IMG/VR virus record: IMGVR_UViG_2859783438_000003
Origin: a virus
Taxonomy: Duplodnaviria > Heunggongvirae > Uroviricota > Caudoviricetes
Direction: 5' to 3' (one strand)
DNA length: 32,689 nucleotides
Shown here: in pieces, positions 1,507 to 31,190 of the stretch
Layout: each line of letters begins with the position of its first letter
Position numbering within the stretch: position 1 is the first letter of the stretch
Translations under genes and position numbers: made by a program
The notes under the pieces: model-generated
The model's database searches: none
What the model was told of the DNA's origin: nothing
What the model saw: the letters and a program-made list of their open reading frames with translations, nothing else

Positions 1507-1955
1507 TGAGGTAGCCTGAGTTTAACGGACACTCCTTCCTGAAATAGAATGGCATCAGAAGGAGCTAATAATGAGCAGAAAAACCCAACGTTACTCTAAA
1601 GAGTTCAAAGCCGAAGCTGTCAGAACGGTTCCTGAAAATCAACTTTCGATCAGTGAAGGCGCTTCCCGATTATCTCTTCCTGAAGGCACTTTAGGACAAT
1701 GGGTTACCGCCGCCAGAAAAGGGCTCGGTACTCCTGGTTGAACGCTGAAAAATGAGAGCCTGAGCCACTATCGTTTTAATAACCGGGATGAAGCCATCTC
1801 AGTAATACGGGAATACATTGAGATTTTCTACAATCGTCAGCGTCGTCACTCTCGTCTGGGGAATATCTCCCCGGCAGCCTTCAGGGAAAAATATCATCAG
1901 ATGGCTGCTTAAAAAAAGAACAAATGGTAGTGTCCGCTATTGCCAGTACACCTCA
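1507..1955 (+). mobile_element. IS3-family (IS600-like) remnant with internal deletion
   Basis: Starts TGAGGTAGCCTGAGTTTAACGGACACTCC and ends ...GGTAGTGTCCGCTATTGCCAGTACACCTCA (imperfect inverted repeat, TG...CA termini); orfA N-terminus MSRKTQRYSKEFKAEAVRTV... joined to an orfB C-terminus ...YNRQRRHSRLGNISPAAFREKYHQMAA. Confidence 0.7.
1571..1741 (+). pseudogene. IS3-family orfA, truncated by the internal deletion
   Basis: MSRKTQRYSKEFKAEAVRTVPENQLSISEGASRLSLPEGTLGQWVTAARKGLGTPG then stop; a second copy of the same N-terminus lies inverted at 11974..12081. Confidence 0.6.
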
Positions 1956-2154
1956 TCCATCACCGAAAAAAATTGGCTTTTACACCATTGGCGATAAAAG
2001 CATTTACCTGTATGACCTACGCCGCATGGATGAAATCATGGAGGCTCTTGATAATCGTTCGTCGATGGATTGGTGTGTTGCTGTTCATGATATGAATGCA
2101 GGGTTTGATGAAAAGATTTTGTTCCCCTCATCAGTTGAAAGCACTGCGGGTTAA
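1924..2154 (+). CDS. hypothetical phage protein (76 aa)
   Basis: ORF from track; the ATG lies inside the right end of the IS remnant so the native start may differ. Confidence 0.35.
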   Translation: MVVSAIASTPHPSPKKIGFYTIGDKSIYLYDLRRMDEIMEALDNRSSMDWCVAVHDMNAGFDEKILFPSSVESTAG

Positions 2155-2164
2155 GGAGTAACAC

Positions 2165-2332
2165 ATGACCACTATTACCAAAGAACGTATTGAATTGTTC
2201 ATTAAAAACCCGCTTGAAAACGGGCTTACCCGTGGTGAACAAATGGAACTGGCACGGATTGCGCTGGCATCGCTGGAAGCAGAGCCGGTTGTGTTCTGGT
2301 TTGAAAAATATCAAGAAGGGGCTACGGCATGA
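2165..2332 (+). CDS. hypothetical small protein (55 aa), paralogous to the N-terminal half of the next ORF
   Basis: Not in the ORF track (under 60 aa). ATG at 2165 follows GGAG; stop overlaps the next start (ATGA at 2329..2332); translation [55 protein letters not shown]. Confidence 0.4.
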
Positions 2333-2673
2333 CGACTTTTACCAGAGAGCAGTTAATAGCTCACGCAGAGGAGACTATTGAAGCACAGAGACTGTGCATA
2401 CCGGGCACAATCGACCATGACATCATCCGCACATATAAGATGGATATTGCTGTTCTGGAAATCGCACTGGTATCGCTGGCAGCAGAGCCAGCCGGTAAAT
2501 TGCATGAATACAAACCAGTGGGATATCAGCGTCTGGTCGATGAGTTAACCATGCTGGTAAAGCAGTTAACCTGGCAACTGAGGAAAGCGAAGCCAGACTG
2601 CAAATTACCGGATAAGGCGATGAGTTATCTGGAGCGGAACGGACTGATAAGCGTGGAGGATATTTTACGATGA
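2329..2673 (+). CDS. hypothetical protein (114 aa)
   Basis: ORF from track; shares MTT.T.E start and an IAL.SL.AEP motif with the preceding ORF; translationally coupled on both sides. Confidence 0.45.
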
Positions 2674-2753
2674 CCTGGCCTGAAGCATTAACAACGGTAG
2701 GAATTGCGATGGCGGTGGCGCTGGTGGTGTATTCGATTTGCCGCTGGGGATAA
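2670..2753 (+). CDS. possible 27-aa hydrophobic peptide
   Basis: ATG overlaps the stop of the previous ORF; translation [27 protein letters not shown]; very short, so weak. Confidence 0.2.
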
Positions 2754-2964
2754 AAACGGTTTGCGGGAAAAGGAGAGTTAAGTAGAATTGCAGCGGGTGC
2801 TTGAGGCTATCTGTCTCAGGCATGAACACCAAAAGGCAGATAGAGAAAAGCCCCAGTTAACATTACGCGTCCGGCAAGACGCTTAACATTAATCTGAGGC
2901 TCAATCTATGAACGGCAAATCTAGGTTAGCCTCTTACGTGCCGAAAGGCAAGGAGAAGCAGGCT

Positions 2965-3120
2965 ATGAAGCAGCAAAAGGCGATGTTAATCGCCCTGATC
3001 GTCATCTGTTTAACCGTCATAGTGACGGCACTGGTAACGAGGAAAGACCTCTGCGAGGTACGAATTCGAACCGGCCAGACGGAGGTCGCTGTCTTCACAG
3101 CTTACGAACCTGAGGAGTAA
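2965..3120 (+). CDS. hok: Hok/Gef-family type I toxin (51 aa)
   Basis: Translation MKQQKAMLIALIVICLTVIVTALVTRKDLCEVRIRTGQTEVAVFTAYEPEE matches chromosomal HokD/RelF-type toxins as I recall them; AAGGAG 8 nt upstream; the track ORF 2908..3120 is an in-frame upstream extension. Confidence 0.85.
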   Translation: MKQQKAMLIALIVICLTVIVTALVTRKDLCEVRIRTGQTEVAVFTAYEPEE

Positions 3121-3187
3121 GAGACCAGGCGGGGGAGAAATCCCTCGCCACCTCTGATGGGTCAGGCATCCTCAATGCACCCACACT

Positions 3188-3220
3188 TAACCCGCTTCGG
3201 CGGGTTTTTGTTTTTATTTT
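3188..3220 (+). terminator. intrinsic terminator downstream of hok
   Basis: Hairpin acccgcttcggcgggt followed by a T-run. Confidence 0.5.
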
Positions 3221-3337
3221 CAACGCGTTTGAAGTTTTAGATGGTGCCGGAATAGAATCAAAAATACTTAAGTAGCGCGCAGGGAGAAGAGGGATGGACC
3301 CCGAACAGGGGAGTGCTATTTATCTGGAAGGATTCTG

Positions 3338-3601
3338 TTGATGAAAATCGAAGAATTACGTGAAATTTTTAGTGAAGATGGCCTCTATACTGTGCGCGTT
3401 GAGAATGGCGCTATTGTCAGCCACTGCCGTATTAAATGTTTACAGTCTCAACAAAGGAAGAGTGGAGCTGCGTTAATTCATTTTGTGGATGGGCTTGTGA
3501 CGGATGGTTTTATTTCGCGTGCAAATGAATTTGTCACATCGTTGCCGTCTCTGAAAGAAGCTGGGATTAAGGCTGGTTTTTCTGCTTTTGAAGATGAGTG
3601 A
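3338..3601 (+). CDS. hypothetical phage protein (87 aa)
   Basis: ORF from track; sits in the same position as small nin-region genes of cryptic lambdoid prophages. Confidence 0.4.
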   Translation: MMKIEELREIFSEDGLYTVRVENGAIVSHCRIKCLQSQQRKSGAALIHFVDGLVTDGFISRANEFVTSLPSLKEAGIKAGFSAFEDE

Positions 3602-3947: not shown

Positions 3948-5006
3948 GTGCGGGTATTACTTCGACCTGTTCTGGTACCGGAACTCGGTCTGGTTATCGT
4001 TAAGCCAGGCCGTGAATCAATGTCAGCATTCCATAACGGCAGAATACTGGTGGAGCCGGAACCAAAAAGCATGCGTAATCTGCCGTCCGGGGTCGTTCCT
4101 GCCGCTCGCCAGCCGCTGGTGGAAGACAAAACATTGCTGCCGTTTTTCAGTAACGCACGGGTGATTCGTGCTGCTGGTGGTGCTGGTGCATTGTCTGACT
4201 GGCTGTTGCGCCATATTAAATCCTGCCAGTGGCCACACGGCGATTATCATCACAGCGAAACCGTCATTCACCGTTATGGTACCGGCGCAATGGTGTTGTG
4301 CTGGCACTGCGACAACCAGCTGCGTGACCAGACATCCGAATCACTCGAGCAACTTGCTCATCAAAACCTGTCAGCATGGATGATTGACGTCATCGGTCAC
4401 GCAATAAGCGGTACGCAGGAGCGTGAATTATCTCTGGCTGAATTATCCTGGTGGGCGGTCCGCAATCAGGTGGCGGACGCGCTACCGGAAGCGGTATTAC
4501 GTCGTTCGCTGGGGTTGCGTGCGGAAAAAATTCGCTCTGTGTACAGTGAAAGCGACATCATACCGGGAGAGCAGACAGCCACCAGCATACTGAAGCAGCG
4601 CACAAAAAATATTGCGTTACTGCCTCACGTCCACCAGCAACAGAACCCACCACAGGAAAAGACGGTGGTCAGCATTGCCGTTGATCCGGAGTCACCGGCT
4701 CAGTATCTCCAGCGCCAGAAATCACAACGGGAAGAGATGCCTGTATACACGCGCTGGGTAAAAACGCAGAAATGCATGACGTGTGGCAATCAGGCAGATG
4801 ATCCGCATCACATCATTGGTCATGGACTGGGAGGGATGGGAACAAAGGCTGATGATTTGTTTGTTATTCCGTTATGCCGTAAATGCCGTAACGAACTACA
4901 TGCCGGAGTAAAAGATTTTGAAGAGAAACACGGCAGTCAGCTGTTGTTGCTGATTCGTTTTTTAATGCACGCGAGAAATTCGGGTGTTCTGAAGTGGAAA
5001 GCATAA
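3948..5006 (+). CDS. DUF968 / YdfU-like phage protein with C-terminal HNH-like zinc motif
   Basis: C-terminus CMTCGNQADDPHHIIGHGLGGMGTKADDLFVIPLCRKCRNELH; sits directly upstream of rusA as in lambdoid nin regions; true start may be an internal Met. Confidence 0.7.
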   Translation: MRVLLRPVLVPELGLVIVKPGRESMSAFHNGRILVEPEPKSMRNLPSGVVPAARQPLVEDKTLLPFFSNARVIRAAGGAGALSDWLLRHIKSCQWPHGDYHHSETVIHRYGTGAMVLCWHCDNQLRDQTSESLEQLAHQNLSAWMIDVIGHAISGTQERELSLAELSWWAVRNQVADALPEAVLRRSLGLRAEKIRSVYSESDIIPGEQTATSILKQRTKNIALLPHVHQQQNPPQEKTVVSIAVDPESPAQYLQRQKSQREEMPVYTRWVKTQKCMTCGNQADDPHHIIGHGLGGMGTKADDLFVIPLCRKCRNELHAGVKDFEEKHGSQLLLLIRFLMHARNSGVLKWKA

Positions 5007-5387: not shown

Positions 5388-6205
5388 AACTGGAAGATTT
5401 ACCGAAATACTACTCCCCAAAATCCCCCGGCCTGACTGATGCATCGGCCTCAACGTCGAAAGATGCGCTGAGTATCACTGATGTGATGGCCGCGCAGGGC
5501 ATGACACAGAATCGGGCTGAGATGGGGGTTTCTGCGTTCCTTGGGAAAATGGGCATTAGTATGAATGACAGAGAGCGGGCAACAGAATTGCTGACAGAAT
5601 ATGCACTCAGTCGGTGTGATCGCGTGGCGGCGTTAAGAAAACTCCCGGCAGAAATAAAACCGGCAGTGATGCGTATTATGGCTTCGTATGCGTTTGAAGA
5701 TTATGCCCGTAGCGCGGCGAGCAAAAAACAGTGCCCCTGCTGTCACGGAAAAAAATTTATTGAAAGCGAGGTTTTTACAAACAAGATCCAGTATCCGGAT
5801 GGTAAGCCGCCGGTATGGGCAAAGTGTACGAAAGGTGTGTATCCGTCTTACTGGGAAGAATGGAAAAAAGTCAGGGAGGTGGTAAAAGTTGCCTGTCCGG
5901 AGTGTGGCGGAAAGGGTGAGGTTTCCACCGCCTGTAAGGATTGCCGTGGGCGTGGTGTCGCCATTCATCGTGAAGAGTCGGTAAAACGTGGTATGCCTGT
6001 TATCAGAGACTGCCAGCGTTGTGGTGGTCGTGGCTATGAAAGACTACCATCAACGGAGGCATTTAATGCTATATGCGAGGTGACAAACCAGATAACACGC
6101 GCGTCATGGGAAAAAACAGTTAAGAAATTTTATGATGCGCTGGTGACCCGGTTTGATATTGAAGAAGCATGGGCTGAGCGGCAGTTAAAAAAGGTAACTA
6201 GGTAA
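5384..6205 (+). CDS. late antiterminator Q (Cys-rich, zinc-binding)
   Basis: 273 aa with several CxxC pairs (CPCCHGKK, CPECGGKG, CKDCRGRG, CQRCGGRG); position directly after rusA and before a PR'/tR'-like pair. Confidence 0.7.
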   Translation: MKLEDLPKYYSPKSPGLTDASASTSKDALSITDVMAAQGMTQNRAEMGVSAFLGKMGISMNDRERATELLTEYALSRCDRVAALRKLPAEIKPAVMRIMASYAFEDYARSAASKKQCPCCHGKKFIESEVFTNKIQYPDGKPPVWAKCTKGVYPSYWEEWKKVREVVKVACPECGGKGEVSTACKDCRGRGVAIHREESVKRGMPVIRDCQRCGGRGYERLPSTEAFNAICEVTNQITRASWEKTVKKFYDALVTRFDIEEAWAERQLKKVTR

Positions 6206-7876: not shown

Positions 7877-7952
7877 GGCCCTTTAGCTCAGTGGTGAGAG
7901 CGAGCGACTCATAATCGCCAGGTCGCTGGTTCAAATCCAGCAAGGGCCACCA
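7877..7952 (+). tRNA. tRNA with CAU anticodon (Met or lysidine-type Ile2)
   Basis: Cloverleaf folded by hand: 7-bp acceptor ggccctt/aagggcc, anticodon loop ctCATaa, T-loop ttcaaat, CCA encoded. Confidence 0.8.
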
Positions 7953-7959
7953 TCACATA

Positions 7960-8036
7960 CCGCCATTAGCTCATCAGGAAAGAGCGCCAGCCTTCGAAGC
8001 TGGCTGCGCGGGGTTCAAGTCCCCGATGGCGGTCCA
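7960..8036 (+). tRNA. tRNA-Arg (anticodon UCG)
   Basis: Acceptor ccgccat/atggcgg, anticodon stem ccagc/gctgg with loop ctTCGaa, T-loop ttcaagt, CCA encoded. Confidence 0.75.
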
Positions 8037-8049
8037 TTATCTGCATCAT

Positions 8050-8126
8050 GCGTTGTTAGCTCAGCCGGACAGAGCAATTGCCTTCTAAGCAATCGGTCAC
8101 TGGTTCGAATCCAGTACAACGCGCCA
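8050..8126 (+). tRNA. tRNA-Arg (anticodon UCU)
   Basis: Acceptor gcgttgt/acaacgc, anticodon stem attgc/gcaat with loop ctTCTaa, T-loop ttcgaat, CCA encoded. Confidence 0.8.
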
Positions 8127-8173: not shown

Positions 8174-8400
8174 CTCACAATTCAGACGGTTGACAGTTGT
8201 CTGTTTTGCGGGGAGTTTGTTAAAAGAAACTGGCATGGTGAATCCCCCTGTGCGGAGGGGCAATCAGCGAGTAGGTATATGGGATAATCGCGGATTCAGG
8301 TGCTGGTACTGAATTCACCGGGAGGCACCCGGCATCATGCAATGGCACATAGCGCCACTCTCCAGCCCTCTCCGGAGGGGCTTTTCTGTGCCGGATACAT
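8174..8400 (+). ncRNA. structured non-coding module A (candidate sRNA or regulatory leader)
   Basis: TTGACA hexamer near the 5' end, three GC hairpins (cccct/agggg; ccggg/cccgg; ccctc/gaggg + T-run); paralogous to module B; no conserved ORF. Confidence 0.25.
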
Positions 8401-8640: not shown

Positions 8641-8880
8641 CTCACAATTCAGTAAGTTGACAGTTGCCTGTCAGACTGGGCATTTGTTAAAAAAATTTCG
8701 CATGGTGAATCCCCCTGAGCGGAGGGGCGACTGGTGACGGTATAATCTCTGATTATCAAAACGAGAATGACGCGGGTTTAGTGGCACCGGGCTGAACTCA
8801 CCGGGAGGCACCCGGCACCATGTGCATGATGATACAGATACGCGGCTTTAGCCCCTCTCCGGAGGGGTTTTCTTGTGGGC
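8641..8880 (+). ncRNA. structured non-coding module B (paralogue of A)
   Basis: Same block order as A (ctcacaattcag, gttgacagttg, tttgttaaaa, gcatggtgaatccccctg.gcggaggggc, caccgggaggcacccggca, cccctctccggagggg + T-run); preceded by its own hairpin + T-run. Confidence 0.25.
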
Positions 8881-30920: not shown

Positions 30921-31190
30921 ATGCTGCCGCAGCATAGCGATATTGAAATAGCCTGGTATGCTTCGATACAGCAGGAGCCGAATGGCTGGAAGACCGTCAC
31001 CACACAGTTCTACATCCAGGAATTCAGTGAGCATATTGCGCCACTTCAGGATGCTGTAGATCTGGAGATCGCAACGGAGGAAGAAAACTCGTTGCTGGAA
31101 GCCTGGAAGAAGTATCGGGTGTTGCTGAACCGTGTTGATACATCAACTGCACCTGATATTGAGTGGCCGGAAGAACCAGACACAATGTAA
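30921..31190 (+). pseudogene. tail fibre assembly protein fragment (C-terminal half only)
   Basis: Ends ...[37 protein letters not shown] like Tfa C-termini; lacks the conserved N-terminal ...KNI.AGNP.. region. Confidence 0.55.

Follow-up and report, generated by a model that had tools for sequence, protein, structure and literature searches.

A canonical hok/mok/sok cassette and a conserved 27-codon membrane-peptide gene, probably independent of each other, in the early accessory region of a lambdoid prophage

We examined a 32,689-nucleotide (nt) stretch of tailed-phage DNA, IMG/VR record IMGVR_UViG_2859783438_000003 (hereafter, the window), which represents part of a decayed, lambda-like Escherichia/Shigella lambdoid prophage, and focused on the small open reading frames (ORFs) at positions 1924-3222, the last of which encodes a Hok-type toxin. 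As summarized in Table 1, this region most probably forms the far end of the early accessory (ea/ead-type) block of the prophage and consists of three independent components. It is in all likelihood made up of ordinary prophage accessory genes and a canonical, previously characterised hok/mok/sok cassette, and its sole new element, on the level of annotation, is a conserved 27-codon gene. An initial annotation, made from the sequence alone, had raised the possibility that the small ORFs and hok constitute a toxin-antitoxin or exclusion module, with small nin-region genes as the fallback; the fallback turned out to be essentially right, and we consider it highly probable that the small ORFs and hok do not make up such a module. 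The ORFs that it had listed, together with the ATGA overlaps at 2329-2332 and 2670-2673, were all confirmed.

Table 1. Features of the small-ORF region, the hok/mok/sok cassette and their surroundings in window coordinates (aa, amino acids; mRNA, messenger RNA)
Feature	Position	Strand	Evidence or remark
Internally deleted remnant of an IS3-family insertion sequence (IS)	1571..1956	+	Pfam HTH_Tnp_1 1.7e-14, rve_2 7e-12
orfA fragment of the IS3 remnant	1571-1741	+	
C-terminal part of orfB of the IS3 remnant	1742-1912	+	element end follows
76-aa ORF	1924..2154	+	phrog_1714 gene, 5'-truncated; start codon and first ~11 codons IS-derived
55-aa ORF	2165..2332	+	phrog_3323 1.3e-19, phrog_60 4.3e-18; RefSeq WP_000207997.1
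114-aa ORF	2329..2673	+	phrog_660 8.2e-43; RefSeq WP_000206826.1
Gene for 27-aa single-pass membrane peptide (predicted)	2670..2753	+	ATGA overlap with 114-aa ORF at 2670-2673
hok/mok promoter (predicted)	2760..2788	+	-35 TTTGCG 2760-2765, 17-nt spacer, -10 TAGAAT 2783-2788
Full-length hok mRNA, 420 nt (predicted)	2795..3214	+	tac, leader, Sok target, mok/hok, fbi, terminator
5' tac element	2795-2806	+	GGGUGCUUGAGG
Sok antisense RNA, ~71 nt (predicted)	2846..2916	-	position matches annotated SokW of 933W
mok, 70 codons	2908..3120	+	in frame with hok, start 19 codons upstream, common stop
sok promoter (predicted)	2923..2951	-	-35 TTGCCT 2951-2946, 17-nt spacer, -10 TAACCT 2928-2923
hok, 51-aa Hok/Gef membrane toxin	2965..3120	+	Pfam HOK_GEF 3e-23, profile positions 1-42 of 42
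3' fbi element	3170-3182	+	CCUCAAUGCACCC; fbi motif in 145 of 166 loci
Intrinsic terminator of hok mRNA	3189..3216	+	stem AACCCGC-TTCG-GCGGGTT, then T run; conserved in K-12 Qin
87-aa homologue of K-12 Rem	3338..3601	+	phrog_340 1.1e-21; collinear DNA alignment with K-12 hokD-rem
DUF968 gene	3948-5006		downstream of the cluster
RusA-sized ORF, 126 aa	5007-5387		identity from annotation of collinear relatives
Q-antiterminator-sized ORF, 273 aa	5384-6205		identity from annotation of collinear relatives

All the sequence features by which a hok/sok locus is recognized were found, namely the Hok ORF, a mok frame as the target of Sok, an antisense Sok with its own promoter, and tac-fbi closure of the mRNA together with a terminator. 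The assignment of the toxin to the HokD/RelF type held, in that an exact-sequence look-up of the 51-aa Hok returned HOKD_ECOLI, the name of K-12 HokD. The mok frame scored 7.7e-33 against phrog_251 ('MokW-like host killing'), and 126 of 150 loci had an ATG in frame with hok and 19 codons before it. Of 166 loci, only one or two lacked a -10-like hexamer at the site of the hok -10 box, even loci with diverged flanks having one (TAGAAT in 141, TAAGAT in 10, TAAAAT in 6, and TACAAT and TATAAT in 3 each), and the transcript is predicted to start at G2795. In the minimum free energy fold of this mRNA (-169 kcal/mol, z=-6.8), its first 12 nt were paired with the fbi element (tac-fbi). The presence of Sok, which the initial annotation had left open, was settled by a match to the Rfam sok model (RF01794, positions 2795-2970, 112.4 bits), by its promoter, which was conserved in 117 of the 166 loci, by its SokW-matching position, and by its fold. 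The predicted RNA folded with -29.9 kcal/mol (z=-4.9) into a long hairpin that ends in a U tail and leaves the 5'-terminal 14 nt unpaired; this free stretch is complementary to 2903-2916, a segment that includes the mok AUG at 2908.

The hok and sok promoters were placed by homology, by conservation across loci, and by published sokW mutagenesis. In the work of Takada et al. (2021; PMC8621323), antitoxin activity was lost in a mutant whose sokW -10 box had been replaced with primer YO-421 (TAGGTTA to CCGGCTC); the mutated box corresponds to window positions 2923-2928. It weighs against the assignment that a generic sigma-70 scan called neither the hok nor the sok promoter, both of which fell below its threshold, and that the evidence for this exact copy consists of sequence and fold. 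On balance, the locus very probably represents a canonical hok/mok/sok cassette of the hokW/hokD type that is complete and independent of the neighbouring small genes. The hok 3' untranslated region (UTR) and terminator (3129-3210) also gave a sub-threshold match to the Rfam isrK model (25.7 bits, gathering score 50, E=0.002), which probably reflects the terminator hairpin alone.

From window position 2670 to ~3190, the DNA was ~92% identical to hokW-mokW-sokW of the Stx2 phages 933W and Sp5 (Takada et al., 2021; PMC8621323). The 933W locus has the same layout of promoter, tac, Sok target, in-frame mok 19 codons upstream, 51-aa Hok, and fbi; its sok -35 and -10 boxes are identical, and the same 27-aa ORF lies immediately upstream. 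The two differ at the C-terminus of Hok (FTAYEPEE in the window, FVDYESEK in HokW), in mok codons 2-6, and in the gene upstream of the 27-aa ORF, which encodes the 114-aa mosaic protein in the window and L0139 in 933W. The cassette, moreover, is sited between replication and DUF968/RusA/Q genes in the window, whereas it lies near attR in 933W.

With hokD (relF) of the K-12 Qin prophage, the hok coding DNA, 3' UTR, fbi, and terminator were nearly identical, and the same rem homologue lies downstream. The homology, however, began only at the hok Shine-Dalgarno sequence (~2951), from where it ran via the 3' UTR into the rem homologue; K-12 lacks the promoter, tac, Sok target, sok, and mok start and has relBE in their place, whereas the window locus is intact. 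Since the alignment starts no further upstream than the Shine-Dalgarno sequence, K-12 hokD is a 5'-truncated copy behind relBE, and the window form the intact one. The absence of relBE upstream of hok had been correctly noted at the outset, but the derived state is that of K-12 hokD and not that of the window locus.

The in-frame extension from 2908 had likewise been taken to be unlike mok, which was an error: mok is in frame, at the same 19-codon offset, both in mokW/hokW and in mokC/hokC (gef) of the K-12 chromosome, where SokC, like the Sok of the window, overlaps the mok start by 9 nt. An in-frame mok as an anomaly was therefore rejected, this arrangement being normal for chromosomal and phage loci and a separate frame with a different stop being found only in plasmid-type mok (DUF5431). 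The hokC locus differs in its genomic site, beside nhaA with IS186 nearby, and in not being prophage-borne. The hok/sok loci of plasmid R1 and its kin belong to the same family and share its regulatory logic, and conserved segments of the leader and sok promoter were detected on many plasmids; HokW is just 44% identical to R1 Hok (PMC8621323).

The cassette would be expected to operate as follows. A weak promoter would give rise to the stable ~420-nt hok mRNA, which would be kept closed by pairing of 5' tac with 3' fbi, and a stronger antisense promoter would produce the unstable ~71-nt Sok. The 5' tail of Sok would then pair across the mok start codon, so that translation of mok, and with it the coupled translation of hok, would be blocked. 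Upon loss of Sok, for example at prophage induction, Hok would be made and the inner membrane depolarised. In Sp5, hokW/sokW was found experimentally to be a type I toxin-antitoxin pair that aids phage release (PMC8621323): upon mitomycin C induction Sok is lost and HokW then reaches the inner membrane, and the presence of the locus roughly doubles the phage yield. That Hok is toxic, that Sok counteracts it, and that the locus has a part in phage release are thus taken from published near-identical or related loci rather than from the window allele, and we infer the transcription start sites and how the small ORFs would be expressed in this IS-disrupted copy.

The 27-codon ORF immediately upstream of the cassette encodes what is probably a single-pass inner-membrane peptide, with a predicted N-out/C-in topology. 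A pattern scan of viral contigs returned 123 occurrences of the ORF, and the frame was intact in ~116 of them. Window and 933W become homologous precisely at its ATGA, the genes upstream being unrelated, and the ATGA overlap with its Shine-Dalgarno sequence was kept after three unrelated upstream gene ends, including ...LPEPPQEVNQ and ...NIEQEVNR. Past the stop codon, the sequence splits into many classes, comprising the hok cassette (70 of the 123), varied intrinsic terminators, and other genes. Mosaic junctions thus coincide with both the start and the stop of the ORF. The ORF as a piece of the minimal hok cassette was ruled out, as the left end of the cassette falls past the ORF stop codon.

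Translation of this frame was supported by its pattern of variation. Among five divergent copies, the pairwise ratios of nonsynonymous to synonymous substitution (dN/dS) were 0.09-0.57 in frame, compared with values mostly of ~1 or above (range 0.40-6.2) in the other two frames. In 55 closely related alleles, 26 variable sites fell at third codon positions, compared with 16 and 12 at the other two. Synonymous divergence among homologues reached saturation, yet the length stayed fixed at 27 codons; variants of 24-26 aa arose via in-frame deletions, and in-frame length variants of 3, 6, and 9 nt are known. Replacements within the hydrophobic core were mostly conservative, and W3-P4, G11, Y21-S22, and R25-W26 were largely retained.

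These features bear on the alternative that the 27-codon frame is untranslated and conserved as DNA or RNA, be it because it contributes to the hok promoter from upstream or because it serves the preceding gene as its 3' UTR. The ORF is very short, and no coding sequence was annotated for it in the RefSeq record examined, produced by the Prokaryotic Genome Annotation Pipeline (PGAP), or in the phage records inspected, although a few GenBank submissions carry the exact peptide as "prophage protein". No convincing Pfam, NCBIfam, or PHROG family was found for the peptide (weak, sub-threshold matches to KdpF and DUF883_C were seen), and its string was absent from a full-text literature search and from the supplements of the Sakai ribosome profiling (RIBO-seq) small-gene paper. 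The few frameshifted or nonsense copies point the same way. Untranslated conservation nevertheless appears unlikely in view of the in-frame dN/dS values, the third-position enrichment, the in-frame length variants, and the exact length of 27 codons up to synonymous saturation; besides, the ATGA and Shine-Dalgarno sequence recur behind three unrelated gene ends, and the ORF is also present with no hok downstream.

Against the ORF as a conserved gene, it must be set that the frame is broken in a few relatives, by a 1-nt deletion in phage vB_EcoS-689R5 and two viral contigs and by a nonsense codon in one further locus (L051), so that the gene is dispensable, and that the dN/dS-like ratio of 0.50 over the 55 alleles corresponds to only moderate constraint within the population. 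The 1-nt deletion lies right behind the ATGA and shifts the frame (vB_EcoS-689R5, locus L002, 5714-5824; contigs L142 and L161); it may reflect either an error of sequencing or true loss of the gene, and the vB_EcoS-689R5 record annotates a 36-aa ORF in the shifted frame instead. Taking both sides together, the 27-aa ORF is, as judged from its conservation, a real small membrane-protein gene, which would be the last of the Eaa/DUF551-type block and not a component of the hok cassette.

Its DNA was found in 1634 of 5426 complete E. coli genomes (~30%), at 3110 places and with up to 7 copies per genome. In a degenerate-pattern scan of one genome per species (185,579 genomes), the gene was confined to Escherichia and Shigella, barring two suspect hits, namely E. 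coli-type 27-aa/hok sequence on short contigs of Xanthomonas pisi (431 bp, L221) and Acinetobacter idrijaensis (369 bp, L224). Such E. coli-type sequence also occurred, at 96.7% identity, in the Actinobacillus phage vB_Apl-pPE4 (hit H28). All three are likely to be contaminant contigs or mis-assigned sequence. A cluster look-up that grouped the 27-aa peptides with DUF551 proteins was taken as an artefact, its other members being devoid of the peptide, and just the exact-sequence names were used from that source.

In size and in its single hydrophobic helix, the peptide is similar to small single-pass inner-membrane proteins of enterobacteria and phages such as KdpF and MgtU, but it shares no significant homology with any of them, and its vicinity encodes no membrane complex to which it might belong. 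As a type I toxin it would be suitably hydrophobic; on the other side, no Rfam model matched across 2670-2753, no promoter-like site was called on either strand at ~2600-2800 by the generic sigma-70 scan (which also missed the hok and sok promoters), and the ORF is translationally coupled to the upstream gene and not standalone. The ATGA overlap and Shine-Dalgarno sequence suggest that it would be translated by coupling to whatever gene precedes it, and, as a guess, it may be a small membrane protein produced alongside the early accessory genes upon induction or infection.

The 27-aa ORF and the hok cassette were each found apart from the other. In 27 of the 123 occurrences of the ORF, no hok was present within 2 kb (a few of the contigs end sooner). 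In phages BP-4795 and PhiR12_1, a 27-codon homologue follows a DUF551/Ea22 gene and precedes DUF4222-xis-int, with no hok, and in ArgO145 a divergent 27-codon homologue is placed before a type II toxin-antitoxin pair. In Escherichia phage Av-05 (KM190144.1), a virulent member of the Vequintavirinae, an N-module gene (the N-module being the N-terminus common to the 55-aa and 114-aa ORFs, described below) overlaps by ATGA with a 27-aa homologue behind it (L218, 1342-2084), and the occurrence of the same gene pair in this phage indicates that the pair has moved between temperate and virulent phages. The Av-05 pair consists of the N-module protein MSILTKERL...ARIALAVLETKPVAW and the 27-aa homologue MTWPEAFTTVGVVMAVAFAVYSVCRWG.

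The hok cassettes, for their part, had at least five classes of left neighbour. Among the matches listed, 115 hok loci were evaluable, and the left neighbour was the 27-aa ORF in 29, a 30-34-aa peptide of the type ..YCLxVxLMDRLxx in 31, a 59-72-aa two-helix protein in 17, a 108-aa membrane protein (phrog_3772) in 3, and another gene in 35; this sample is highly redundant, each class amounting to a single junction. Peptides of 30-34 aa upstream of the hok leader were seen in L047, L019, and L073 (34 aa) and in L022, L044, and L048 (30-34 aa), 59-aa two-helix proteins ending in MCIEYWR in L005, L016, and L034, and the 108-aa phrog_3772 protein in L063 and L093. Among the short hydrophobic ORFs preceding these other phage hok cassettes are MSDDISLAMEGALAVIAVVGVYCLVVFLMDRLGN and ..AIYCLAVVLMDRLSD. 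In view of the cassette's own promoter and of the variety of its left neighbours, and since the 27-aa ORF occurs also without hok, the two do not appear to form a joint module.

The same neighbourhoods could be read differently, with Hok having partners in the 27-aa peptide and in the small hydrophobic ORFs analogous to it, which would act as modulators, immunity factors, or co-toxins in a two-peptide module. It counts in favour of such partners, and hence against independence, that the 27-aa ORF directly adjoins hok in 70 of the 123 sampled occurrences, and that four unrelated classes of short hydrophobic ORF end no more than ~100 nt from the hok promoter, so that ~70% of the 115 listed phage hok loci are preceded by one. 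The working hokW-sokW clone of Takada et al. also happens to contain the ORF: pBAD18-hokW-sokW (primer YO-432, corresponding to window 2664-2686) starts with GAATCAATGACCTGGCCTGAAGC, at the ATG of the 27-aa ORF (PMC8621323). The ORF was hence included under the arabinose promoter, which the available part of that report does not mention, and the published experiments do not separate it from hokW-sokW. However, the loci of neighbour class A share one junction, which argues for descent and not for repeated association; the ORF lacks hok in many prophages and a virulent phage; and hok cassettes without any such ORF exist, remnants of the B/C-type peptides being tolerated. To our knowledge, the classical plasmid hok/sok loci need no such peptide partner. 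Moreover, hokW is toxic by itself, and sokW suffices to neutralise it (PMC8621323).

Partnership with Hok is therefore, in our estimate, very unlikely, and we give equally little credence to any functional link between the small hydrophobic ORFs and hok. A broader version would hold that short hydrophobic peptides are recurrent functional left companions of prophage hok/sok that tune Hok insertion or oligomerisation or protect the lysogen, the candidates being the 27-aa MxWPEAF..YSICRWG, 30-34-aa ..YCLxVxLMDRLxx, and 59-72-aa two-helix families. If true, it would make phage hok/sok a three-component system, but it, too, has a very low probability. Independence of the 27-codon gene and the hok cassette thus remains the preferred reading.

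The two genes upstream of the 27-codon gene had been described as an internal duplication. The similarity of their N-terminal motifs was real (BLASTP, 33% identity over 54 aa, E=1e-5), but the genes proved to be two neighbouring members of a large mosaic family that carries a portable N-module. The motif M-[TS]-T-[IF]-T-x-E... opened 68 distinct proteins of 53-289 aa among 216 sequences (the fetched loci and the window), and the C-terminal parts behind it differed widely, including DUF551, the C-module of phrog_660, and a GWNACRAAML-type end. The common N-terminus of the 55-aa and 114-aa proteins is thus a portable module, a helical hairpin of ~45-50 aa. In an AlphaFold2 model, the 114-aa protein was all-helical (mean predicted local distance difference test score, pLDDT, 77.8), with a confident N-module hairpin at residues 6-51 (pLDDT ~90) and more helices beyond.

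The 55-aa protein begins with M-T-T-I-T-K-E, and near-identical N-termini occur on proteins of 231 and 289 aa; it would thus consist of the N-module and a 14-residue tail, and is, most simply, probably a gene remnant. An alignment of 29 homologues of the 114-aa protein (A3) revealed three parts, namely the N-module, a variable insert of 0 to ~100 aa, and a near-invariant 45-aa C-module; the window protein, made up of the N-module and the C-module, is the minimal version of the family. All 238 homologues of this protein were enterobacterial prophage hypotheticals. In addition, a 101-aa hybrid, in which residues 1-37 of the 55-aa protein are joined at ...IALASL/AAEP... (the slash marks the joint) to the remainder of the 114-aa protein, occurs in a viral contig (L049), as protein P0150, and in several E. 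coli and Shigella genomes. Such hybrids demonstrate recombination at the conserved motif, which thus serves as a joint between the two genes.

Against this background, a recent local tandem duplication, in which the 55-aa and 114-aa ORFs would form a toxin-antitoxin or exclusion operon with the 27-aa ORF, is exceedingly unlikely. The ORFs are indeed adjacent and overlapping and share N-terminal motifs, and small overlapping ORFs are typical of toxin-antitoxin operons. The shared part, however, is just 33% identical, each N-terminal variant is far closer to longer genes elsewhere than to its neighbour, a third N-module gene lies immediately upstream in relatives such as L003, and no match to a toxin-antitoxin or defence family was obtained with PADLOC, Pfam, or NCBIfam. 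PADLOC defence models matched none of the six proteins of the region.

Both proteins turned out to be known prophage proteins by PHROG, RefSeq, and exact-sequence names, the very identification that the initial annotation had named as refuting its cluster. The 55-aa ORF, which had been missing from its ORF track, is nonetheless annotated in RefSeq relatives, where it and the 114-aa ORF appear as hypothetical proteins. The source names of the exact sequences were "Eaa protein", "prophage protein", and "DUF551 domain-containing protein, partial". As for membership, the N-module is found on DUF551 proteins, and the genes of the relatives sit among ead/Ea22-like genes.

It has to be set against any more specific assignment that no function was found for either protein by Pfam, NCBIfam, PADLOC, PDB-profile, or Foldseek searches, and that all three PHROG families concerned are of unknown function. 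Pfam, NCBIfam, and PADLOC scans of the 55-aa, 114-aa, and 27-aa proteins gave nothing significant. No Pfam family was matched by the 55-aa or 114-aa protein at E<=1, including DUF551 and any Ead/Ea22 model, and DUF551 was readily detected by Pfam in a relative (P0002). A sequence-profile search of the PDB with the 114-aa family gave a single match (E=0.17), and a Foldseek search of the PDB with the model gave nothing at E<=0.001, just generic helical hairpins. The Ea22/ead/Eaa/DUF551 genes of the exo-xis or ea region (PMC10834534, PMC7093339) belong to the same type of early accessory block and show the same shuffling of domains, Ea22-family genes being known as mosaics of portable domains (PMC10834534). 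The N-module of the two window ORFs is that of the N-terminus of many DUF551 proteins, but neither ORF has DUF551, and the pro-lysogenic role of Ea22 is not transferable to them.

On the upstream side, the cluster had been taken to start at 1924. The ORF there is real, but it is a phrog_1714 gene (5.3e-37, residues 10-76 aligned to profile positions 21-87 of 87) whose first 11 codons are supplied by the end of the IS3-family remnant. The full-length gene has 87 aa both in the PHROG profile and in annotated relatives, and an intact form is present in L003 at 5935-6198. Homology to intact prophages begins only at ~1956 (query position 57/58), and the IS3 element abuts the region; the 76-aa ORF is therefore truncated and has an IS-derived start. 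The IS3-family remnant separates the small-ORF operon from the upstream prophage genes, so that the native upstream operon has been lost.

The same 1.25 kb is 98-99% identical in two collinear relatives, E. coli PRO_A (locus L003) and phage vB_EcoS-689R5 (locus L002), in which it is preceded by cI/cro, replication genes, DUF977, and several consecutive ead/Ea22-like genes; this gene order is interrupted in the window. The DUF977 gene of the window lies at 1117-1455 on the minus strand, inverted relative to the intact relatives, and an IS1-like element at 523-1018 includes a run of masked N bases (X in translation). The two point to an IS-mediated rearrangement of the early region of the prophage.

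Downstream, a promoter-like site (TTGAAG-18-TAGAAT, 3229-3258) lies between the hok terminator and the rem homologue and is conserved in K-12 Qin. Three transfer RNA (tRNA) genes and two copies of the STnc100 small RNA (124 and 161 bits) were found at 7877-8123, 8204-8393, and 8671-8880, downstream of the presumed Q antiterminator gene, an arrangement as in Stx-phage-like late regions. Farther away, the Rfam IS009 model matched 30944-31147 with 129 bits (gathering score 117).

For hok/sok biology these results change little, except that the intact window locus lets K-12 hokD be seen plainly as a truncated derivative. The region provides a clean case of module shuffling among Eaa/DUF551-type genes, which takes place via their conserved N-terminal leader and has also produced a hybrid between neighbouring genes. 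It also brings to light a 27-codon gene that bears the signature of purifying selection and is carried, often in multiple copies, by ~30% of complete E. coli genomes, while being left out of the RefSeq and phage records inspected.

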